Below, one piece after another: positions 1,759 through 63,976 of a DNA stretch of 64,000 nucleotides. Source of the stretch: Cirrosporium novae-zelandiae (lineage: Eukaryota); the NCBI GenBank assembly GCA_026023565.1, contig JAPETS010000046.1, positions 1 through 64,000 of the forward strand, given 5' to 3'. Each line of letters begins with the position of its first letter. The first letter of the stretch is position 1. The notes beneath the pieces were generated by a model. That model saw only the letters and a list, made by a program, of their open reading frames with translations. It ran no database searches and was not told the DNA's origin. The translations under genes and the position numbers were made by a program.

Positions 1759-4700
1759 CTAACGCTTCCTTTTCCTTCCCCGACTCCGATCTTCATCATC
1801 ATCATCTAACCCCCCTTCCATATCCTTCTTCTTGGCCTTCTTTTCCAACTCATCCCAATCCTCCCCGCCACTTTCATCATCAACATCGCTACCATCCTCG
1901 CTCGCCTCCGCACTAGCATCATCATCGAAATCGCTCTCGTCCTCACTGCTCTCGTCACTTTCCGCCAACTCGCTTTCGCTCATCTCAAAGGCGCTTTCCT
2001 CTTCTTCGGATTCGGCGTCTTCACTGTCAGATTCTGCCGTCAGGAAGGACCAGCCTCCGTCTTTGAAGAATTGATGCGGATCTGCGGTTACCGTTTTCAT
2101 GATCATGGACCAGTTGAGGTTGAGGGGGCCTTCGGTAAAGGGAATGTCGACACTGTCTAGCCACTCCTTGACATTTTCGAGTGATTCCACGGGGATGGTG
2201 TTGATATGTACAGGCGGGCGGTGGTAGTCTTTGAAGACGATGACCATGTCAAAGTTTTTGAGACCAAACTATGCATAAATGTTAGCGTTACATCCAAAGT
2301 AAGCATATTGGATAACTTACCTGAACTCTTTCTAGATGAGCAACTTCAATCTCATTTAGAGTCACCACCGTAAATGGAGGCTCGGTCAGTTGTACCAGGC
2401 AATCCGTTGATGGCTGAACCAACACATTGGATCTGAAGGGCACACCATTAAATGCAAGATCCCTGAATGGAATGTCGACCCCAACACTGTGATCCTTGCC
2501 AGCATCCGCAATTTTATCAGCAAATGCCTTGAATTCTCTGTCAAGAACTCCTCTTCTTCTCCTTTCTTCTTGTTCCGCCTCAAATTCTTCTTCATCGCCA
2601 TATCTGTGCCTGCGTTTGCGATTTCCTGTTTCATCAAACTGCATCTCTGTAGCTTCTCGATAGAACTGAATATCCTTGGTCTTCTTTTTGCCAAGCATAA
2701 TAGGAGTCTTGAGGTGGATGTGAATTATAACAATCAGTTCATGCGCACATGGCTGGAAGAGAAGATGCTTAATATTGCTGAAAAGTATATCAATGCGATG
2801 GTCGAGACGTAGAGGACCCTGGTAACGAATACCATTTTGGTGAATCTCAACTTCTCCAGGTACACGCTTTCCTTCAAGGGCCGGTCGGACGAAGAGATCA
2901 GGTAGACGTTGTGGACGACGGTTTCTGATTTCAATGAGCTTGTCTTGTTCAACAACATCTTCCATTTCCTTCTTCTCCTGTTCACGTCGCACGGCATCTT
3001 TTCTCATATCAGATATAGTTTGAGCAATTTCTTCCATTCTACTCATGTCTTTGGAGCGGAATGTTAAACTTCGCACAAAATGCGCCGAAGCATCCTCAAA
3101 AGGCTGGTCATCTTTCCTACCAACACCTTGACCCGGCGATAAGAAGTTAATTCGTAGATGCGCAAAGTCCCCTTCATTGTTACTGCTGGCATTCTTGATT
3201 GTATTGATATGGAATGGCACTGGCCGACCAAAGATGGGCAATACAACTGTAGAGTTCTTTTGATCAACTACAATCGATAGATCCTTGACACGTGAAGGGA
3301 ATTGGTCTTCTCTTTTGTAAGACTCAAACCGCTTGAACTTTTTCTGAGCAACACCATTCTGGTTCCCGGTTGCTTCGCTGTATAATCGAAGACCTTCTTG
3401 TTGTTTCTTCGAAGCCAACTCCTTTTGATGATCCCTGCGCCTTGCTTCTGCACCCTCGTCTACTTGAGTAGTTCTTTCGGCACGTAACCTTGATTTGGTG
3501 ATATTTTTGGTAGCGATAGCACCAACCTTTGGATCCTTCTTCTCCTTTCTCGGTGCGGGCTGTTCTTCATCATGCTCAAAGAAAAAGGAGACCGAGTCCA
3601 AGTCAAATGGCGCATGCTTGGTGAAAACTGCGGGTTCAGAACTTGGAAGAGTAACTCGAATGGTATCTGCAAGGAACAAAGAATAAGTTGAGCTTCCGTT
3701 TTGAAGGTCGGTAAATCCTGTGGTTATGACCAAAGTCATGCCATCCTTGAGAGTTCTCATATTCTTAGCATTGAGGACTAATGTGCTATCTCGAGTTTCA
3801 ATCCCAACACCAGCACCAATATTTTTGAGGAAATGCCTTTCCAGATCAGGATTCTTAGTCCTGATAATCCCCAGTGCTTTGTTGTAGAGATCTTTGGCCA
3901 CGGCACCATCTCGAGCATCCTTTAGTACTGCCTCGTGAACAGCAAGGAGAAGCTTATAATTGTGTTCTTGTGATTTATTGGGATCCACCAAATATGTTCG
4001 GGCCATAATCGAGGCATAAGTCTTATATCGAAGTCCCATCCCTGCGATGATGATCCCCGGCTTGAGATTATTCCCGTCAGGTTCCGCAGTCAGTTTGAGA
4101 TCATACTTGCCACCACTCTGGATAACTGGCCCATAAGCCCAATCAAGATTCTGATGATCGAAATCGCTTGGTAGTCTTTTGACTTTTGAAAAAAACTTCT
4201 TCTCATCAATTTTGCCATCAATTTTCGCAGCCAGATCCTTGTGGGCGACCTTCTTTTCCTCGTCGAGAATTTCCGACATCTCCTCAACAAAGTACTCGGT
4301 CATGAGGCTGCTGCAAGCGAGTGAAGCATTGCGCATTGCACGCTGAAACCTGTTAGAACTAAATTGCAAAAAGTAATCTCGTACTCACTAATTCTGACTC
4401 GTCCTTCACGGACAAGGCTGCTGTAGACAGAGCTGCGCTAATATCAACTTCCTCCACATCTTTCGATATTTCACCAAATGCCTTTTTCCATTCGTCGGCG
4501 AAAGGTCCTGATGATGTGTCTTTGGCCAGTATACCAACTTTTTTCTGCGAGATGTCAGTCGGTCCAACGCTGACAGGAGGCGAAAACTTACGCCGGCGCT
4601 TTTAATAATATTAAGGCATTTTTCAAATTGTTTGGCATTATGTTCAGGATCTTTGTTGCGGACAAGGATCTCTAGAGGTATCTTGCCACCTTTTTTCAAG

Positions 4701-24469: not shown

Positions 24470-26922
24470 TCATCTTCGACTGATTTCTGCCATTTCCCTC
24501 TCCAGCTCTTTAGCTTCCTCCTGCCATCCCTGGTTCTGATAAATTGACGCTAGCTTAGCTATGCTGGCCAATGTATCTGGATGTTCGGCCCCAAGCACTT
24601 TTTTCCTGAGCTCTATTACGTGAATTTCTAGCTTTTCAGCTTCTACCCATCGTTTTTGGAAAGACAAAATTGGCACTAAGTTGGCTAGGCTGGTCAATGT
24701 TTCTGGATGTTCGGCCCCAAGCACTTTTGTTTGGGTTTTTATCACTTGAATATCCAGTTGTTCAGCTTTTTCCCACCGTCCCTGGGCTCTATAAATTGAC
24801 GATAGGCTAGCTATGCTGGCCAATGTATCTGGGTGTTCGGCCCCAAGCATTTTTTCCCTGATTTCTATTACGTGAATTTCCAGCTTTGCAGCTTTTACCC
24901 ATCGTTTTTGGAGAGACGAAATTGATACTAAGTTGGTTATGCTGGCCAATATATCTGGATGTTCAGGCCCAAGCACTTCGCTTCCGATTTCTATTACTTC
25001 CATATGCAGTTTCTCTGCTTCTTCCCAACGTTTTCGATTGAAGTAGACGAATGCAAGACTGGCGATAGATTTTAGCGTATATGGATGGTTCGTCCCAAGT
25101 ACCCTCCGATTTTCTTCCACTTGTATTTCCAAACAGGTTGTTTCTTGCTCGCTGGTAGATTTATCTAAAATACCTTCTGGGTCTTTTGACGCTAGCTGAC
25201 TGGGTAATCGGTCCAGAAAATTATCCACCTTCACTCTAACGTGTGAAAGCTTAGAAAGTTCACTCGTTTCCTGAAGATTCGCTAGAGTAAACGAGGTTTT
25301 CTGGCTCAAAGGATCAGGAGGTGGGAGGCTACTAAGATCCTCTACCTCTATCTCTAAAGAGGACAAGCCGTCAAAATTATCATCATCGTCAGGCTCTTGA
25401 GATCCTCGATTGGCATTGGATGAACCTGAATCCCCTTCTTCCGAGCCCACTTCCATACTCATGGCTCTGGGTAACGCAAAGCAAGCAATTCTTTGGAGAT
25501 GAGATGCGACATGACTCGGGCTGATATTCTTGGTTAGACAAAAAGGACATTCTCGCTCAAATGATTCTGGAGGAGACCCATTCAAGGAGGAAATGTTTAT
25601 ATGGTGTTGATACTCGTGGTTAATCCAGTCTCTAAGGCTATCGTATTGTAAATCTGCTTCCTTGCAGTCTTCATATGTGCATACATAAGGTCTAAGGTCT
25701 CGCAATACGTGGATTCTATATCAATGTAGTCAGTAAGATATTTTAGAATAATTTTTAAATCCATTAGTCAGTTCACTCACTCCCATGCTCTCTTCTCCAT
25801 TATTCGTGTTGAGCACAAAATGAAACAGTAGGGGCATTCGAACTCCTTTTCCTCGCGAAACTTTATCGGAAGCTGTGGAATGAAAGGCCCTTCATAAGTG
25901 TCTTCTTGTGCCATAATAGCATAAGTCGATGTTGAAATCACTGAACTATTGTCATCTAGGTCAATCCTCGCGTCCTCTACTCTGGTCGCAGTGGAAGACA
26001 GTGATAGAGTAATTGCTTCAGCAGCGTATGGGCCTGTGGAGTTTGAGCTGCCTAAAAGATTTTTCTGTTTAGGAGGCAGCTGTATCCCCTGTTGAGGGTC
26101 CCGACCTATCCGTTCAAGTTTAGATTTGTGCTTCTGCCAGTATCGAAATTGTTGTCTGCGTCGTGTATTGGCCTTGGCGAGCCGTTGGACAAGAAAGTGG
26201 TCTTCGCCATTTTGAGTATCCTTACAATATTCGCATCGTTCCTTATGGAGTTGCCCAATGACCTCCTGCATATGGTGATAATCTAAACATTTGAAACAGT
26301 CGATCAGATCGATTCCAGTTGTTTCGTCCACTTCGTGATATGCATAAGCTTTCGAGAAGCCTATCCTTGTGCTAGGATTACGGATTCGAAAGGATAACCG
26401 GTATAGCCTGTCGATTAGGTCTACGAGGCTGTCGAGAGCTACTTGGACTAACGGCTCATCTTCGTCACTATCAGTGTCTTGTTCAAAACAGTCCTCATGG
26501 CCTTCCCCGTCCTCATGGGGATCGGGGTCGTTCTTCCAATGTGGCTTCAATCCCAAAGTCTCATTTACTAGCGTGGTGTCAACTAAGACTCAAATATATA
26601 AGATGGAATTCTTCAAGCCTGTACTTATCGCGAACGGTTCCTCAAAACTTGCCAACAGCCTCCTAGCAAAGTCATACACCGCAGGAGCATCTCTGAATCG
26701 GTAATCCAATGAGCCGTGACCGTGCTGGTATAGACCAAGGTTTATAGCCCACAGACTAAATCTCTGTGACTGGTTAATCAGCTCTATTTTGGACACGCCT
26801 TTTCTGGAAAACTCGTTTGGATCATGAGTCTCAAAATATTCTTCTAAAGCCCTAAACGTGTCCCGTATCCAGAAACCGGTGCTAGCCAAGGACTCGTGCG
26901 CCAATGAACTTCGTAGCATCAT
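24470..26922 (-). CDS. Protein with an N-terminal helical domain, a C2H2-type zinc-finger region and C-terminal kinesin-light-chain-type TPR repeats (3 exons)
   Basis: RFSLWAINLG..SLDYRFRDA; LIDRLYRLSFRIRNP; RLAKANTRRRQQFRYW; FECPYCF..W.IHVLRDLRPYVCTYEDC..WINHE; CPFC..HVASHLQRIA; 42-aa repeats LGAEHPDTLASIA.LA.IY..QGRWEEAE.L. Confidence 0.85.
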
Positions 26923-44806: not shown

Positions 44807-46893
44807 ATGTTCAAAAAAAAGCCAATTGTTGGATCCTTCGAACCGATCCTTTACGAGCTTGGAAAACTGACCTATCCCAAAGATTAAACCACTTTCACCA
44901 TTGCGATCTTCAGACCGTCGAAGGGTCGCTGATCAGATCATTGCCGATTTTACAATCGATGTACCCTCTCCAGCTCCTGCTGAGCCTACTGGCGATCCTA
45001 CAACAAACGCCCCGCCTGCTATTACGATTTCCACAATTCGCAATCAATTACTACCCGATTCCTCTCTATCCGCGAGATTTACCACCACAGCTGGGCCTGA
45101 TCTCAAGCAGGTCTCAGGAACAATATATGTTGGAGCACATCCCGGAGAGGAGCAAAGAGTGTTATGGGTGAAGATAAATGAAAGAATATACCCCACTGGT
45201 TAGGAGACCAATATTTCAACATTAAATATAGATCTAATATTCGGAATTTAGTATATACGCTATGGCACAACCCTCGGCTAGTTCCTTTATTATTTACTCC
45301 CTCCTTTGTGATGCAGAAACTTCATGGTGGGGCAGACCTTATGACTCCAGGTCTAGCAGGACCCCCATTCCCCGAAACAGCAAAGAAAGGGGCCACTGTG
45401 GCCGTTGCAACTATAGAGAATCCTTCTGTTCCACTTTTTGTGGGCACGTGTGAAATTGACATTAGCTCTCTACAAAATGTACGAGGTGCAAAGGGACGTG
45501 CTGTCCGAGGCGTCCATTGGGAAGGTGATGAGCTATGGTCATGGAGCTCTTCAGGGAAGCCAGGAGGTGTCGTGCCGGATTCCTTGGAGGGCTGGTTACC
45601 GTCAGAGAGTAATCAAGTCATGGAGGATATACAAAAATTACAAATCACAGACGAGGAGGAGGAACAGGATGGGGGTGTTTCCTTGAATGTAGGGGCAACC
45701 AGTACTGGAAAGCAGGTCACACATGAAGCACATGATGATATAGCAGAAACAGTTGAGATAGAACCTCTTTCAACAAAAGGTATTAAGCTGCAATATCCCT
45801 CCTAGAGTCCTCTAACGAGTTCCCAGAAATCGACGACATCTTCCACAAGGCTTTTCTCTACTCCATCCACCAAGCCAAAACCTCTCACCCTACACAGCAA
45901 AACCACGGAATTGACTTTCCAATTCCTCAATCCCTTTTCATCTCAAATTTTGTGATGCCCTTCCTTCCGGCCATTCACCCGTCTCAGCTCTCCTCGCTGC
46001 ATATCAAAAAGACAAGCTGGAAAAATGCAAAGAAATTCATCAAGCACCTTGACAAAAACAAACTCATCAAATCCAAAGACCGCGGAGGTGAGGCCGTCAT
46101 CATAGACATTGACTTTGAGGACTCTGAAATAAAAGACTTTACGCCCTACCGCCTACCAAAGAAAGAAACTCGTGGAGCTGATGAGGGCGGCGGCAAAGGA
46201 TCTTCAGCAAGATCTCCAGGAGCAGACATCTCGGTCGGCCAACAGCTCAAAAAGCTAAATCTTTACCGCCCGAAGGAAAAGCTTTCATCCCTCTTCAAAG
46301 CGGCCAAGGCAGACCCAAAAGCCTACTACCTTGCCTCTGAGATCCGACCCGTTGTAACCACGTACTTTGAATCCGAAAATCTTGTTTCTCTATCCAATAA
46401 ACGCTACATAAAAATCGACCCCATCTTCGCCAACGCCGTCTTCGACGGGTCCTCCGCCATGGACAACGACATCATCTCTCGCGGCCTAGTCACTCGTGAC
46501 ACATTGGTCGACCGGGTCCTGCAGCACTGCAACTCCTTCTACGCAATCCTCCGCAACGACGAGACCCTCGAATCCACCAAACCAAAACCAGGACACGGAC
46601 CCAAGGTCCAAATCCTGCTAGAAACACGATCAGGGAATAAAACCGTTACAAAGGTGAGCGGGTTAGAGGTCTTCTATATCAGTCCCGCGACCCTATCCGA
46701 GGAACTCCAGAAGAGCTGTGCGAGTAGCACGAGTGTTAGTCAGCTAGTTGGGAGCAGCCCGAAGAACCCGGTTATGGAGGTTATGGTGCAGGGGCCACAG
46801 AAGGCAAATGTGCTGAGTGCGTTGGAGAAGCGAGGTGTGAGGAAAGAATGGGTGGATGTAGTGGATAAGACGAAGGGGAAGAAGGGGAGATAG
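44807..46893 (+). CDS. TMA64: Translation factor eIF2D/ligatin (PUA + SWIB + SUI1 domains; multi-exon)
   Basis: MFKKKP|IKPLSPLRSSDRRR; YPTVYTLW; KLHGGADLMTPG; IKKTSWKNAKKF; SUI1 domain RSGNKTVTKVSGLE..LQKSCASSTSV..EVMVQG. Confidence 0.92.
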
Positions 46894-54825: not shown

Positions 54826-57408
54826 TCAAGCACCTCTGCGAGCATTTGTAGACATCAATGTGATCTTTTTGCCCTTTTTCTTTTTCCCATGTCCCCCTGG
54901 AGTGCTGGATGAAGCCACTCCTTCGCTAAGGGAGATATCTGACGCACGAGCAATCATGTCCTCTTGCAGTAGGTCTTGCTCCCAATTCTGAAGCCAGCCG
55001 TCATCAGGTGGATCCGGTACTACTTCAGCTGGCAGCGAGGGAGATTGTGGCGTGATTGCGCGTGTGCCCCACACCGTACGAGATGTACTTGGGCTGGTTG
55101 ATGGTGAAGCTAAGGAGGCAAAATGGGAACCTGAATGAATTCTCGAGGTAGGCCAAGGAGGTGAAGACGACGTGCTGAGAATACTGGGGTCATTGGTGGC
55201 GAGTGGTTGAAAATCCTCCTGTGAAAATCTGGTATCCTCTGTCGTAGCCGGTCGATTACGTCTAGCAGTAGCCCATCGTTTGTCTTCTTCCTCTTTTTCC
55301 GCTCTTGCACGGTCCTTTTCCTCTCTCATCTCCTTTTCTCGATTCCGCTTTCTCCGACGGTCAATGTCTGATTTAAACTGGCTTAGAATATCGGGATTCA
55401 CAATGTCAGTCCAGTCGCATTCTAGAAAATTAACTTCACATCCGTAGGGCAGATGTCCCAGATATTTGCATCGTTTTCTCAAATCATCATCAACAATATG
55501 GCCGGTGGAGACCCGCTCCACTCGAGGAAGGATAGTAGAGGGAAATTCAGAGTAGTACCCAAATGCAGTCCGTAAAATGCGAATATCAAGAGGAGATAGG
55601 TAATAGTGAAGCAGCGCTTGATAGAAAAAGAAACGATTCCCCGCCGAAATATGCGTTGTGCCAGCACGTTGATCCTGTTTCTCAGAATGTGCTGAATTAG
55701 TAGTGACAAGACTCCCTTTAGGGGTTTTGGGAATGTTATTGGCTGGAGGAATTGCTGGAGATCCGGAAGGACTAGGCTGCATAATCTGATCGACGAAATC
55801 AGGAGCAAGTGAAGGATCAAAATCCTCTTTTCCATCCGATCCCTGGCTGATAGGGGCAGATGTAGATGGCTCAGGTTGCTTTCTAGACTTTCTTTCAGAT
55901 GGTTTCTTTGGCGTGGGTGGTGGATTTCCAATCCCCTTAATCTTTTCTTTGGCTTCCAATACTGCAGATATGGCTTTTCGAGTCCACTGAGTTTCTTCTC
56001 CAAACATTAGCTCGTCTTCGCGTTCCTGTCTTTCCATGTCCCCAATCTCTTGGTCATATTGTGCAAGCATGTAATCTTCGCTTCCTTTCATAACTCTAGC
56101 ATAATCAAGAACCTCTGCGGCCATGTACCATGGAATATCTTCAGACTGTCCCAAAACGTCCGCACCATCACGAGGTAAGGCAAGAGTACTTCCCGGTTCT
56201 CGCATAATAAGTCGAAGCACCACATCAGCCCCCTCCTTTGGAGGATCTCCCTCCTCCCCTATATACCAGCGAACAGGGCGAGTCTCAGACACATAGACGC
56301 TATCCCAACAAATTGGGCACTTTTTCCATCTAGGCTTTTTTTCAGGGACCGGATTTGCCTCATCGGTTGAATGCATGTAGCGAATTAGACATGGCAAGCA
56401 GAATATATGGCCACAGCGAGCCATACGTGGCGCAACCGGAGTAGATAGACATATCGGGCAACTGGCTGCTTGGGATTTGGCTGATGCAAGGATCTGCATA
56501 ACGTTGTTCCAGTCAAGGTGAACGTCAGCATCTACTGCCTGCGCATGATAGCTCCCTTTTGGATTTACTATAAAACGGTAGTTGGCATGTACATATCTAG
56601 AGGTTTTGTGAGCATTCAACTATCGCTTTAGATTATCCCGAATCAGATTCTTACCTCGCCTTATCGACCGCATGATAACCGGAGCCGAGACCCCATGTAG
56701 GATTCCTGCGCGTATGTCTATGCGAAGATTGATATTGCGGTCGAGGTGGCAAAGAAAACCTCATAAGATGGGTGATGGAGGTCTGCCCACGCCGACTATT
56801 CGTGGAATGCATGGCCATCTATAATCTCAGACAGAATTAGCAAAAGTTACCCAGTTGAAACGGCAAAATAAACTGTAAATTGATATCGAAGATCTGATGG
56901 CTCTTTCAAGCCCATCGCTTGAATAATCCATGTCTCAGAGCCAAGAGTAGAATCGAAAGTGGCGGCAGTTGTTCCTCGTACCAGTTCACACCAATCGCCC
57001 ATTTCACTCCGAGGTCTTCCTAATATTCCAAATGCGACAGTGGATCCCTCGTGAAAGCTGATGTGAACCAAAACTTCATCTTGTTTGAAGCCTCCCGGAT
57101 ATGAATGGTGATGGCAAAGTTTGTTGAGGGATTGGTCAAGGAAGTAATCAACTCACCGATTCCGCGATAGCATCTTCATCCACAAGCTTTGGGCGACGAC
57201 TAGTTTTATTCTGTTTCCGGAGGGATTGATTGTTTCGAGCAGAGGCAAGATTAGATCGAGAAACGGAAGCTGATCCAAAGCTCCCAGAACCAACTCGTCG
57301 TTGAGAATAGTTATCTGTTCCAGCACCACCAAAGCTGGGAGTTAGTTGAGGAGCAGATGGTGATTGTGGAGTACTAGTCGATTTCGATGAGATAGAATTG
57401 GAAGACAT
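54826..57408 (-). CDS. MAG2: RING-HC E3 ubiquitin ligase, Mag2/RNF10 family (3 exons; alternative in-frame ATG at 57507)
   Basis: SITHLM.F; YVHANYRFIV; CPICLSTPVAPRMARCGHIFCLPCL..WKKCPIC; FFFYQA..YYLSPLDIRIL; LRKRCKYLGHLP; C-terminal KKKKGKKITLMST. Confidence 0.88.
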
Positions 57409-57595
57409 GGCTACCCCGAAGGGTTGGGGAAGTGGCAGAAGCAGAGAGAGGGAAGAAGTAGAAGCAGTCGAACAGAGGGGCTGATGAGCTTGTCGGGAGT
57501 CATCCATCTAAACCCCGACGGATAGAGGTAGTTCATGTCTGCCTCAGGTTGTCAGGTGTCCAGAGTCTAGAGTCTAGAGTTCAAAGTCCAGATTC

Positions 57596-57627
57596 AGGTG
57601 TCAAGGTGTCAAGGTGTCAAGGTGTCC
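57596..57627. repeat. (AGGTGTCA)x3 plus one variant in the MAG2/UBP3 divergent promoter
   Basis: AGGTGTCA AGGTGTCA AGGTGTCA AGGTGTCC. Confidence 0.8.
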
Positions 57628-58371
57628 ATCCCATCAAAAATAATAAACGACGATAATAACAAATAGACTTCTATTTTGTGACTAGGAAAGTGTGACGGTA
57701 CCTAGGTAAGTAATATATAGATATTAAAAATGTCGTGGCTCGATTCAAAGGATCCTATCGGTTAAAAAGCAGTTGACAGGTGTGACAAAGGTGACCAGGA
57801 CTGATCTCTGCCTGAGGTATTAAGTTTTGATTTGTGTCATCGTTTTCACAGCAAAAAATATCCGCATTTGAGAACTAACCCAAATCGTCGGCTACCTTCA
57901 CTCCCAAGAGCCTCCCTCTCTCACATCAAACCAACCCAGTGGCCTAAAGACGCCTCAATCCACCTTCATCCGCCCTTCTCCTTCTTTCTAACATTACCCT
58001 ATTACATGCATTCTTTCCTTCATGTCCATCGACAAATTGTGAATCTCCGTTTGATTGTTTGTCGTCTCTTCACTTTCTCCTCTTCCTCCTTTGACTTGGC
58101 CGGTCAGAATTGCGCTCCCTAGCCAGCCTAGTCTTGACAGTACCAAACATCCATTTACGCCCAATGACGCCTAAATCTCTATTGTCCCTTGGATTCCAGA
58201 TGCAACTCACGCTTGGCTTGAGCCACTTGAAGGAAATATAAGAACTGCCGCGGTGGCATCAGACTGTCGTCTATCTTTGCCTTGGATTATCAGTCGCGTG
58301 GTCATCCTGATCGCTGTCGACTGGAATTTAAGAGCGAAGACGACGACAAAAAGTACGACGTGGATTCGGCC

Positions 58372-61152
58372 ATGATGAACAATCAAATACCGGCAATGCC
58401 TCCTATGCAACCGGCCATTCCTTATAATTCTCGGCGACATCATGATCTCAACTATGCGCCGCCTCCACCTCAATATCGCCCACCCTACAGTGGTTCGCCC
58501 TATCAGGGCTATCACTATCCTCAGAATGGCGGTCCTCCTCCCCACCTGCCACTGCAATATGGCTGGTATCCCTATCACCAGATGCAACAACCTCTACCAC
58601 CCAGGCAATATCAAGCTCCGTACACGCCATTAGTTGTATCCTCTTACCCGCAGTATTCGCCAAGCCCATCCTCTCCTTATAGACCTCAGATCCCTCAGCA
58701 AGTACCCCCGCCGTCGATGCCACCGCAGGCTATGTTGTCTCCTCCCACCTTGCCAAATTCTCCTCATATACCAACCCCTCCTCCAGAAACGCTACCCAGG
58801 GAGCCGATACACGACGTACCTCCGCCTATCCCTCAGACTGCGACAACGACAACTGTACCCACGAAGCCTGTATCGGAGAAACCAAAGGAGCTATCATCAT
58901 CGCCTATAAACTTCAAGACACCACCTCTGCCATGGCTTTCTCGACCTAATGAAGACTTTCCCCCACGGGCGCCACGACGTCGACGGAAGCGCCACACACC
59001 TGGGGCCGAATCAATTGCGGTCAAATTTCCAGAAAGAAAAGATGTCGAAGAGAATCAAGATACAAGTCCAACTCCGGTCCAACCGGCTCCTGTTGCCGTA
59101 TCCGAAGCAGAAACCCCAGCAACTTCAAACCCCCCTTCTGAGGTAGACTCTACACATCCCACCACACCTTCATCAGCGGTACCGCAGACGGTTAAGCCAT
59201 CACCAACAACTCAATCTAAGAGCTCTAGAGGATCAGTTCTACCAATTATACCAGCCGTTCCAAAGGTTCCTAAAAGTCCAGTCACACCAAAGCACTCGCA
59301 CCATGACTCCATTAGTGCTCATTCTACAAGTTCACGGGTAGTTGCCCAGGAGTCATCCAACGATGATTCTGTCATCACCCCCGTTACAGATACTACCTCG
59401 GCTACATCAGAACAGACAGCTACTCCTGCACGAGCCCCTCCTAAATCGTGGGCCGATCTTGTACGCACAAATGCTCCCAAAAAGGCACCATCAAACACGG
59501 CTAGCAAGCCTACTAATATTGGAACCTCCAAATCGGAAACACTCAATGATGTGTTGAATAATCTAGGGGGAGATGGTCTTTTGGACGAGTCAAGGATTGC
59601 ATTTTTGGAACCAAGAGGGCTTGTAAATACAGGAAATATGTGTTATATGAATTCAGTAAGTTGCACGGTTTCTCTGCTGGACCAAAACTAACATTGAAAG
59701 GTTTTGCAAATACTCGTGTTCTGCATTCCATTTTTTCAATTCCTTGATCAAATCGGCAAAAAGGCGGCGCATAGTTTTAAAAGTGATACTCCCTTAGTGG
59801 ATGCATTGTGAGTGTCTATTCTTTTCTGCGCTGCTTTTGCTGACATGGCTAGGATAATGTTCATGCGCGAATTCAGAGTCATTGATTCTGCGCCATCTGT
59901 AGAACAGCTAAGGCTTCGGTTAAAAGAGACGGAGCTTGAACAGTATGGTGAGGCGTTTATCCCGGAGTATGTTTATGAAGTCATCAGACAACTGCCTAGA
60001 TTTTCTTCAATGAGGGTGAGTTGAATGCCTAGAAAACCATTGATTGCCGCTAACGTTTTCTAGCGTGGACATCAGCAAGATGCCGAGGAATTCTTAGGGT
60101 TCCTTCTCGAAGGGCTCCATGAAGAATGTGTTCGAGTCATGAAATCAAATGCCAACCCTGGAGAGTCAGCTCCTGCTATTGGTTCAGCTTCCCCTGATGG
60201 TACACTAGGTTCGAATGGAGATGTCGGTTGGTTGGAAGTTGGACCCAAGCAAAAGGCGGCCATTACACGTTCTTCTGGTATGGTTGTTACCGAATCACCC
60301 ATTACCAAAATATTTGGTGGTAAGATTCGATCCGAGTTCCGTGTTCCTGGTTTACAGAATTCCGTCACCCTGGAGCCATATCAGCCCTTGCAGTTGGATA
60401 TTGGATCACCACAGGTTAATAACATTATGGATGCTTTGAAGAACCTCACTCGACCCGAAACAATACATGGAGATTTCAACTCTCCTCGTGGTCCTGGGGC
60501 TACTGCCACCAAGCAGGTCTACATTGAAACACTGCCTCCGGTCCTGATAATTCATTTGAAGCGCTTCCAGTATGATAACACGGGAGGTACACAGAAGATT
60601 TGGAAAAAAGTTGGCTATCCTCTGGACCTTGAAATTCCAAAGGAGGTATTCCCTCAACATCGACGAGGTGCTATGACTGCAACCAACTCGTTCCCCAAAT
60701 ACCGTCTGATTGGAGTGGTGTATCATCACGGCAAGAATGCAAGTGGTGGGCATTATACAGTAGATGTTCGACGTCAAGAAGGACGAGAGTGGATCCGTCT
60801 AGATGACACTGCCATCCGGCGAGTGCGAAGTGAAGACGTTGCCGAGGGTGGCAGCGAGGAGGACCCCAAGGTTCTCGCGGCAGCGCTTGAACAACATAAA
60901 AATAAAAATAGCAACAGCAATAAATTTGAGCAAATGACGGTGGAGGATGACGAGGTGTCGAATGAAGCAGGGTGGAGTCAAGTGAATGGGGGATCTGCGG
61001 CGGGGACACCAGGAGTGAAGAAGTGGTCCGGGGTGGTGAATGGAAACTCGACGCCAACCAGCTCGTCGGGTAAGAGAAGTCCGCATGGAAAATACTCGGT
61101 GAAAGACAACAAAGTTGCATACCTTCTTTTCTATCAAAAAATCAAGAATTAA
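58372..61152 (+). CDS. UBP3: Ubiquitin-specific protease, Ubp3/USP10 family (4 exons)
   Basis: P/Q/Y-rich N-terminus, PKSWADLV; Cys box PRGLVNTGNMCYMNS|VLQIL; QQDAEEFLGFLL; ESPITKIFGG; LPPVLIIHLKRF; His box YHHGKNASGGHYT..WIRLDD; AYLLFY. Confidence 0.9.
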
Positions 61153-62091: not shown

Positions 62092-63976
62092 ATGACCGTG
62101 ACGAGATCGCAAACAGGGAAAACAGCACTGTACGTGACTATACCCCAACCTCCACCCTGAAAATTATGACGAGAGAAATGAGAGAGACAAAAGAGACGCT
62201 CAACGGTGATATTGTAGGAAGCCCAAATGGCCTGGTTTTGTCCCGACACCTGGTTCCAAATCCCGGAAAAGTCGCTCTACCACTGCCGATATCCATGAGC
62301 CAAAGGCAAAGGCGATCCATGTTGAACATGATTCCAGCTCTCCAATGGATCCAGTCCATATTATACCTTCTCCCAAGTCCAATGGTTCCATTAGTCAGCA
62401 AACGAGAGATGTCCAAATAAACGGATCAAATGGCCATATCACAGAGGCAAAGGCATTGGAACATGAATTGGCCGTACCTAGAGATCCCAAGGTGGACGAC
62501 AGTGGTGATTTTGAATTTGGTGGTGCGCTTGGTGTGTCGGCCATGATGATTGGATTTCCACTTCTCATGTGGTACATGTGGCTCGGTGCAACCTACTATA
62601 ATGGCCATTTCCCTCTCCGTGCGGAAGGCCAGAAGACAATCGAGTTTTTCCAGCACATGGCTTCTTTGGTCTACACAGGAGCATTCCCTCATAGAAAGGC
62701 ATGGTTGATGTACTGGCTGTTCTTTATCTTTGAGGGTGTATGCTATCTTGTGCTTCCTGGTGTGTATGCCAAAGGTAAACCATTGCCCCATGAAGGAGGA
62801 AAACAGCTGACCTACTACTGCTCCGGAGTCTGGTCTTTTTATGTCACTTTCATCCTCGCTGCGGCTCTCCATTTTACCGGCATCTTCAAACTGGAGACCA
62901 TTATTGACGAATTTGGACCTTTGCTAAGTGTTGCCATTCTCTCTGGTTTCCTGGTGGCTATTCTGGCATATTCCTCGGCTCTGGTGAGAGGCAAACAGCA
63001 TCGGATGACCGGATCTCCCGCATACGACTTTTTCATGGGCGCAGAATTAAATCCACGGATGTTTGGTCTTTTAGATTTCAAAATGTTTTTTGAAGTCAGA
63101 CTGCCATGGTTCATACTCTTGTTTCTTAGCTGTGCCACCGCAGCTCGCCAATATGATAAATATGGATACGTCTCTGGAGAAGTTTGTTTTCTTGTCATGG
63201 CTCATTTTCTCTATGCCAATGCATGCGCCAAGGGCGAGCAGCTTATTGTGACTACTTGGTAAATTCTATTCATTCTCCAACAGCCTGATAATCTGACACA
63301 TTCCTAGGGACATGTACTATGAGAAATGGGGCTTTATGCTGATTTTCTGGAACATGGCCGGTGTTCCGCTGAGCTATTGTCATTGCACCATTTATCTCGC
63401 CAACCATCACCCGTCAACTTATGCTTGGAATCCGGTTGCCCTCAAAGCACTTTTTGTCTTGTACCTTTTTGTCTACTGGGTATGGGATACGACGAACAGC
63501 CAGAAGAATGCCTTTAGACAACAGGAACGGGGAGGGTTTCAACCAAGAAAGACTTTTCCGCAATTACCTTGGCAGGTTGTCAAGAACCCTAGGATCATCA
63601 GAACCAAGACTGGGGATTCTCTTCTTGCTGACGGTTGGTGTAAGTGCAGTTCTTACCAGTTATTATTCCTTTTTAGGTCAACTAGCTAACCAAACTTCAG
63701 ACGGAAAGGCACGTAAGATCCATTATACCTGCGACCTATTCTTCGCCGTCTCCTGGGGACTTATCACTGGCTTCCGAAGTCCGTTTCCATGGTTCTATCC
63801 AGTTTTCTTTGCATCAATGATTGCTCACCGCGCATATCGAGACATTCAAAAATGCCGTGAGAAATACGGGAAAGCTTGGTCAGAATATGAACGGGTGGTT
63901 CCTTATTTGTTCATCCCGGTGAGTAGATGACCCTTTTCAATAAGCGCACACTAACAAACAATAGTATGTGTTTTAA
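62092..63976 (+). CDS. ERG4: Delta-24(28) sterol reductase (ERG4/ERG24 family); first exon 62092-62129
   Basis: [92 protein letters not shown]; an upstream exon splices in frame. Confidence 0.93.

Follow-up and report, generated by a model that had tools for sequence, protein, structure and literature searches.

Ubiquitin on the small ribosomal subunit is set by enzymes that act against each other, and the closest described systems are those of human cells and of yeasts. According to the accessible parts of the published reports, human RNF10 attaches ubiquitin to uS3 and uS5 when 40S subunits stall, and USP10 counteracts it. Mag2 is the yeast counterpart of RNF10 and mono-ubiquitinates uS3 in 18S non-functional rRNA decay (PMC10878831, PMC12700985), and Rps3 is deubiquitinated by Ubp3 and by USP10 (PMC5704183; for all three sources as far as their available parts go). 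We describe here a stretch of 64,000 nucleotides (nt) of Cirrosporium novae-zelandiae DNA (contig JAPETS010000046.1 of assembly GCA_026023565.1, positions 1 to 64,000; hereafter the window), a fungus placed in the Xylobotryomycetes within the Pezizomycotina. In this window, a gene for a RING protein of the RNF10/Mag2 family stands head-to-head with a gene for a ubiquitin-specific protease (USP) of the Ubp3/USP10 family. This head-to-head linkage is old, has been retained widely and is a new result: we found no published description of an RNF10/Mag2-Ubp3/USP10 linkage in a search that left subscription journals outside and could miss lower-ranked papers.

The window pair belongs to the same two protein families as the human RNF10/USP10 pair of initiation ribosome-associated quality control (iRQC). 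RNF10 and USP10 are treated there as separate loci, with no mention of linkage in the parts of the reports that are accessible, whereas the window genes are divergent with 963 nt between them. In Saccharomyces cerevisiae, the counterpart families Mag2 and Ubp3(-Bre5) are encoded by YLR427W and YER151C, but these genes lie on different chromosomes. A looser linkage is present in Schizosaccharomyces pombe. There, ubp3 is SPBP8B7.21 (PMC3032702), and SPBP8B7.23, which is a relative of the window RING protein and lies two gene numbers from ubp3, is given as the co-directional neighbour of an endoplasmic reticulum-lumen receptor gene and as convergent with atg8 (supplement of PMC2871058; both sources in their accessible parts). 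Unlike the window pair, the S. pombe counterparts have one gene between them and are not head-to-head. Both systematic names lack the 'c' suffix, and by the naming rule ubp3 and P8B7.23 are presumably on the same strand.

Divergent gene pairs that stay together have been described in fungi before. The accessible parts of the work of Davila Lopez et al. (2010, PMC2871058) list, among others, Rad16/Rad7 and ribosomal protein pairs, which are adjacent across Pezizomycotina and Taphrinomycotina. These pairs are likewise divergent, functionally linked and kept adjacent, but Rad16/Rad7-type genes encode subunits of one complex and the window pair encodes presumed antagonists. Under its gene or protein names, the RING-USP pair was not found in the text of that report or in its six supplementary files, which were possibly incomplete. 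SPBP8B7.23 is mentioned in no main text of the searchable literature, and no paper was found that combines RNF10, S. pombe, Mag2 and ortholog.

The RING gene runs on the minus strand (57408..54826, three exons) and the USP gene on the plus strand (58372..61152, four exons). The parts of the pair are listed here, with exon ends accurate to about 2 nt in both genes:

57408-57157, minus strand: RING exon 1, amino acids 1-84, with the deposited start ATG at 57408 and an alternative in-frame ATG at 57507
56818-56654, minus strand: RING exon 2, amino acids 85-139, with the conserved block GQTSITHLM.F.LPPRPQ
56595-54826, minus strand: RING exon 3, amino acids 140-728 and the stop codon (stop after 54829), holding the RING finger and the conserved C-terminal domain, an exact match to the deposited model P0001
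56308..56460, minus strand: C3HC4 RING finger, amino acids 185-235 of P0001 (PF00097/PF13923), coordinates computed from the exon map
57409..58371, no strand: divergent intergenic region of 963 nt, the putative promoter region of both genes
58372..59658, plus strand: USP exon 1, a long Pro/Gln-rich N-terminal region and then the first part of the catalytic domain, which holds the Cys box NTGNMCYMNS
59704..59808, plus strand: USP exon 2, from the exon map
59854..60015, plus strand: USP exon 3, from the exon map
60064..61152, plus strand: USP exon 4, amino acids 511-872 and the stop codon, encoding the larger part of the UCH catalytic domain with its His box

Translation of the window is identical letter for letter to both deposited models, P0001 (728 amino acids, RING) and P0121 (872 amino acids, USP), and their locus tags are consecutive in the source, which names itself a metagenome-assembled C. 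novae-zelandiae. A gtgagt donor follows directly after RING exon 1. The 963 nt are counted between the RING ATG at 57408 and the USP ATG at 58372; the distance shrinks to 864 nt if the in-frame upstream RING ATG at 57507 is used. The deposited USP model starts at 58396, and the upstream in-frame ATG at 58372 encodes MMNNQIPA. Because the orthologues begin MMN..LPA, the start is more likely at 58372, and the deposited model probably begins eight codons too late. RING intron 1 (56819-57156, minus strand) is long for a fungal intron, at 338 nt, and contains a 101-codon open frame (56847-57152) for which Pfam gave no match.

The RING protein carries a single C3HC4 RING at residues 185-235 of 728, that is in its N-terminal third (Pfam zf-C3HC4 and relatives; E 1.3e-7 for the open reading frame 54826..56619 on the minus strand). 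Its exon 3 product is 56-62% identical across 99% of the length to hundreds of fungal proteins, and a scan of 1.84 billion representatives with the RING protein returned 1998 relatives at E <=0.001, 386 of them at E <=1e-30. Membership in the RNF10/Mag2 family is well supported by sequence comparison with two proteins: S. pombe P8B7.23, which matches over nearly the full length in phmmer (E 1.8e-96) and over residues 58-679 in BLASTP (7e-75), and a chytrid protein named RING finger protein 10 (6e-63). Other relatives come from Protomyces, Pyronema, Mucoromycota, chytrids, Basidiomycota and Saccharomycotina. The distant relatives are mostly named 'hypothetical protein', and look-ups yielded S. 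pombe P8B7.23 and one protein named RNF10. Outside and around the RING, the proteins share an N-terminal ITHL.NF..PPR block, YV.ANYRF.V just before the RING and a C-terminal FYQ..LH.YLSPLDIRIL domain. These blocks are invariant in our own alignment of the family and can be aligned with P8B7.23 and with the RNF10-named chytrid protein; in our reading of the alignments ITHL.NF, YV.ANYRF.V and FYQ..YLSPLDIRIL would define the RNF10/Mag2 family. As a lead only, an RNF10 cluster from chordates is one of the nearest in the ESM Atlas (0.87 by features; template modelling (TM) score 0.48 over residues 67-650). Equally a lead is a Basidiomycota cluster in the Atlas with TM 0.53, whose name 'Alkylbase DNA N-glycosylase' we take to derive from Mag2. 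A PDB sequence search with the RING protein gave generic RING matches only, and no RNF10 or Mag2 entry was among them.

Likewise, membership of the USP in the Ubp3/USP10 family is well supported by its domain and its relatives. Pfam recognises UCH in the last exon (60064..61152, plus strand; E 1.7e-34) and PF00443 (UCH) in the whole protein at residues 407-771 (E 1.3e-47), and C416 and H740 with their neighbouring residues are invariant in the orthologue alignment. The closest relatives are 66-74% identical over the last exon and bear the source names USP10, UBP3 or 'hydrolase 3', which are pipeline annotations. Among animal clusters of the Atlas, USP10 comes first (0.89 by features, row 2 by structure), again a lead only. 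In a PDB search with the USP, the best match was USP15 (2.9e-19) and no catalytic or full-length USP10/Ubp3 entry was matched. Several short N-terminal blocks are kept among the fungal orthologues, and none of them could be tied to binding of a Bre5/G3BP cofactor. A PDB search with residues 1-428 at E up to 10 returned one weak USP match and no Ubp3/USP10 peptide; in this weak peptide search, the Bre5-binding stretch of the S. cerevisiae Ubp3-Bre5 system was not recognised in the window USP. A further difference concerns PAM2, which is present in 85% of the members of the chordate USP10 cluster, whereas it was not detected in P0121, where Pfam finds only UCH and UCH_1. PAM2 is probably an animal feature of USP10, and therefore it is not defining for the wider Ubp3/USP10 family. 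Strict orthology of both window genes, to Mag2/RNF10 and Ubp3/USP10 respectively, is very likely from these comparisons. A complex prediction with RING residues 90-600 and USP residues 385-872 scored 0.00 and gives no verdict on binding. The first-pass annotation had named the pair as a Mag2/RNF10-type RING ligase and a Ubp3/USP10-type deubiquitinase with divergent start codons some 960 base pairs apart; both family assignments hold, and so does the spacing. The antagonism of writer and eraser on which it relied is in print, in the accessible parts of the literature, for RNF10 against USP10 on uS3/uS5 and for Ubp3 on Rps3.

Conservation of the adjacency was followed in two independent sets. 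The named set comprises 12 genomes besides that of the window, which occur in both the RING and the USP match lists and have positional locus tags. RING and USP tags are consecutive in 11 of them (Xylographa trunciseda, X. soralifera, Sarea, Gallowayella weberi, Squamulea, Ikaeria, Candelaria, Candelina, Blastenia, Variospora velana and Psora testacea), the exception being a Mollisiaceae sp. with tags two apart. In four more genomes the contigs that carry the RING and the USP gene have identical lengths, which says nothing about how far apart the genes are. In the metagenomic set, a scan with the RING alignment matched 395 stretches, 228 of which were confirmed, and the best 80 of 228 were kept. 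Grouping of these 80 loci at 90% RING identity gave 46 lineages; contigs were too short to judge in 17 and informative in 29. The USP gene lies upstream of the RING gene in 25 of the 29, and 24 of these 25 are divergent with a gap of at most 2.5 kilobases (kb) between the open reading frames; a partial USP match in one further lineage (L068) was left uncounted. The pairing exceeds chance, as it recurs in 11/12 named genomes and 25/29 lineages, and within Pezizomycotina it is not confined to one lineage.

The arrangement was placed on a RING tree built with the named sequences by FastTree, on which class labels are approximate and lineages are not phylogenetically independent. RING and USP genes are paired in Lecanoromycetes, Leotiomycetes, Pleosporales-like Dothideomycetes and a clade with a USP that shares 91% identity with a Thermoascus protein. 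Unpaired are one lineage within Lecanoromycetes and three Dothideomycetes that are Cladosporium-, Aureobasidium- and Elsinoe-like. The adjacency requires a minimum of two state changes on this tree, or three when lineage 35, a partly loosened case considered below, is scored as kept. The layout dates at least to the common ancestor of the Eurotiomycetes-like, Lecanoromycetes, Leotiomycetes, Xylobotryomycetes and Dothideomycetes lineages. Sordariomycetes, Pezizomycetes and Basidiomycota lay outside the scoring, as did Saccharomycotina other than S. cerevisiae.

Most neighbours of the pair turn over. None of the window open reading frames in 30000-54825 occurs in any of the 80 loci. One neighbouring gene stands out:

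62345..63930, plus strand: ERG4/ERG24-family sterol reductase gene (PF01222, 6e-70 and 8.5e-29), third member of the micro-syntenic block

Apart from this family, the next most common neighbour is present in 8 of 46 lineages once antisense shadow frames are removed. A total of 20 lineages have the ERG4/ERG24-family gene next to the pair. In the window, as in three Leotiomycetes-like lineages (L004, L007, L071), this gene follows beyond the USP gene, and in 17 lineages it is found beside the RING gene (for example L011, L015, L019 and L022), in 16 of them downstream and co-directional and in one opposite. Because both orientations relative to the ERG gene occur, the RING-USP pair has been inverted as a unit, which implies a single inversion that moved both genes and left the DNA between them intact.

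The intergenic region is compact. Among the 18 lineages with refined starts, the two ATGs are 451-963 nt apart in 17 and 1522 nt apart in one, with start estimates for both genes in the metagenomic loci being approximate. The most prominent element is the hexamer TGACTC, which we take to be the core of the Gcn4/CpcA response element. With both strands counted, 26 of 30 lineages, the window among them, have a copy in the 450 nt that precede the RING ATG. Shuffling predicts 5.5 +/- 2.2 lineages and none of 1000 shuffles reaches 26, statistics that overstate independence as related lineages share ancestry, although the sites span all major clades. Among 2039 hexamers in this upstream stretch TGACTC ranks first, against a background of 261 in 1322 windows of 450 nt. 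Its context is roughly C(T/G)GTGACTC(C/T), 25 of the 34 sites are in RING sense, and most are located 180-350 nt from the RING ATG. This pattern suggests that at least the ligase may respond to an activator of the Gcn4/CpcA type, hence to amino-acid starvation. In a paper that mentions Mag2, Gcn4 and uS3, the Gcn4 passages do not deal with MAG2; a co-mention of YLR427W and Gcn4 elsewhere concerns a predicted upstream open reading frame and not Gcn4 targets, in the accessible part of that source. S. cerevisiae MAG2 (YLR427W) has a conserved predicted 6-codon upstream open reading frame at -71 (PMC1964767, accessible part), a hint that yeast may control the ligase at the level of translation. 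The elements found in the window and in the leader of the USP gene elsewhere are:

57497..57502, minus strand: TGACTC, 94 nt upstream of the RING ATG at 57408, where it overlaps the alternative ATG; 57301-58500 holds no second copy
57558..57626, no strand: a pair of adjacent short tandem arrays, GTCTAGA x3.3 and AGGTGTCA x3.9 (the second matching at 100%), between 150 and 220 nt upstream of the RING ATG
L010:3640-3729, L030:8797-8886, L039:9044-9133, L057:9092-9181, L062:3851-3940 and L053:9209-9298, minus strand: inverted repeat upstream of the USP ATG in metagenomic loci

The inverted repeat GTTGCCTCA ... TGAGGCAAC lies 25-85 nt before the USP ATG in Dothideomycetes-like and some Eurotiales-like loci, and is absent from the window. 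Five loci give hairpin z-scores of -3.9, -1.4, -1.8, -5.6 and -3.5, a sixth gives -2.5, and two others are close to 0. The inner stem of this long hairpin varies between groups with pairing kept, and the element may be a structure in the 5' leader or a palindrome bound by a protein. Recurrent motifs termed A, C and D were set aside as a general element, being confined to one related group of loci and close to the USP start.

How the pair came to be kept is a question of probabilities, and we put at roughly 0.5 the explanation that selection has maintained co-regulation of the RING and USP genes. As members of their families, the RING E3 would be the presumed writer of mono-ubiquitin on 40S uS3/uS5 and the USP the presumed eraser of uS3/uS5 ubiquitin on the same subunit, also in this fungus. 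Opening of chromatin or binding of an activator in the common region would tend to raise both genes, and we propose that the doses of the opposing enzymes would be kept in step because activation in this region raises both. The most likely reason for persistence would be that both genes depend on one compact upstream region, so that a break there would damage both. A different account, which is quite possible but to which we give less than an even chance, is neutral or structural retention: the genes would be true orthologues in a small block within a slowly rearranging micro-syntenic island, each with its own promoter and without any coupling. A number of observations weigh against selected co-regulation, and many of them fit such neutral retention. 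The ERG4/ERG24 gene, for which no functional tie to ribosome quality control is evident, is also kept, in 20/28 lineages by a lenient count and in 8/16 in a strict set of 16 lineages with long flanks on both sides, where the USP gene is kept in 12/16. The ERG gene requires a minimum of 5 (presence) or 7 (arrangement) state changes, and counts of 5-7 against 2-3 for the pair are too small to establish a real difference. The pair has also been lost repeatedly, with at least 2-3 losses. Four of the 29 lineages lack a USP gene over a distance of about 10 kb, and lineage 35, which is Dothideomycetes-like, is loosened by an insertion of about 3.3-3.4 kb (L070:6700-9990) with several minus-strand open frames of 120-200 codons; in L059, of the same lineage, the USP gene is inverted and 6.4 kb away, which looks like a pair in the process of breaking up. 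The linkage is dispensable, because it is broken in 4/29 lineages, loosened in this one, separated in S. pombe, where the counterparts are two genes apart and co-directional, and gone in S. cerevisiae, where YLR427W and YER151C are unlinked. The intergenic region points the same way. A k-mer scan of the whole region found no element common to all lineages, no motif common to the RING and USP sides was found, and the recurrent motifs of the two halves differ. Of 18 paired lineages, 15 have TGACTC in the RING-proximal half and 2 have it in the USP-proximal half, and the hexamer stays with the RING gene in lineages without a USP neighbour (L028, L056, L078), which fits separate promoters. Neutral retention in turn has to account for the pair being the most retained local junction while all other neighbours turn over, for its survival of an inversion that moved both genes together, and for the S. 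pombe genes being only two apart, which is unlikely by chance for two given genes. It also sits less easily with products known to oppose each other on the same substrate and with the functional link in conserved fungal divergent pairs such as Rad16/Rad7 (PMC2871058; both points from accessible parts of the sources). We conclude that the RING-USP junction is the most stable one at this locus and that its margin over the unrelated ERG neighbour is modest.

The promoter evidence also bears on a third account, in which control is asymmetric: the ligase alone would be stress-regulated through TGACTC and a Gcn4/CpcA-type factor and the deubiquitinase would be constitutive, so that the arrangement tunes the ratio of writer to eraser and not their balance. 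We consider this quite unlikely. It draws on the RING-proximal position and RING-sense orientation of the TGACTC sites and on the different conserved inverted repeat in the USP leader of several lineages. However, TGACTC lies 276-700 nt from the USP ATG in most lineages and therefore within reach of this gene, as fungal upstream activating sites are commonly bidirectional over a few hundred bases. Moreover, the factor acting on TGACTC is a candidate only, and the window copy is a single hexamer, one of 27 in 64 kb, which alone is not significant. Co-regulation can also be combined with the starvation signal. A Gcn4/CpcA-type activator, which would be produced when the integrated stress response throttles initiation, would then act through TGACTC on the ligase and through the shared region on the deubiquitinase, and selection on this common control region would have kept the pair head-to-head from a time before the major classes of Pezizomycotina radiated. 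Such a starvation-wired switch of 40S ubiquitin would join the stress response to 40S ubiquitination and turnover in a closed transcriptional feedback loop; on the present evidence we regard it as doubtful. The first-pass annotation had proposed a shared bidirectional promoter that couples the two antagonists into a self-balancing module, and had held that an adjacency restricted to one lineage, or no better conserved than its neighbours and with uncorrelated expression, would speak against this. The adjacency proved widespread, and the comparison with neighbours came out in between, since the ERG gene is not far behind the pair and the other neighbours turn over. The shared promoter found no support in the motif pattern. 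That one bidirectional promoter keeps writer and eraser in balance is plausible but not proven, and that the pair is self-balancing is something we infer and do not observe.

The remaining genes identified in the window are the following:

45182-46893, plus strand: eIF2D/Tma64-like gene (Pfam WH_eIF2D 2e-20, SUI1 5.6e-21), about 8 kb from the RING gene
24470-25720, minus strand: TPR_10/TPR_12-repeat protein with an NLR-like C-terminus
2288-4384, minus strand: SPT16 (FACT subunit)

The eIF2D/Tma64 family comprises 40S recycling and reinitiation factors. Because no locus from other lineages has this gene near the pair, its proximity in the window is probably a coincidence. The other two genes are ordinary.

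Conserved gene neighbourhood is rare evidence in eukaryotes, and here it independently ties a 40S ubiquitin ligase family to one deubiquitinase family. The linkage spans hundreds of millions of years. Should co-regulation fail to hold, the pair would be one more case of micro-synteny without function. The lineages that keep, loosen or break the pair form a natural experiment, and the conserved TGACTC offers a testable regulatory handle, which would connect amino-acid starvation signalling to ribosome quality control. The linkage favours the view that fungi, like human cells, use Ubp3/USP10 as the dedicated antagonist of Mag2/RNF10.

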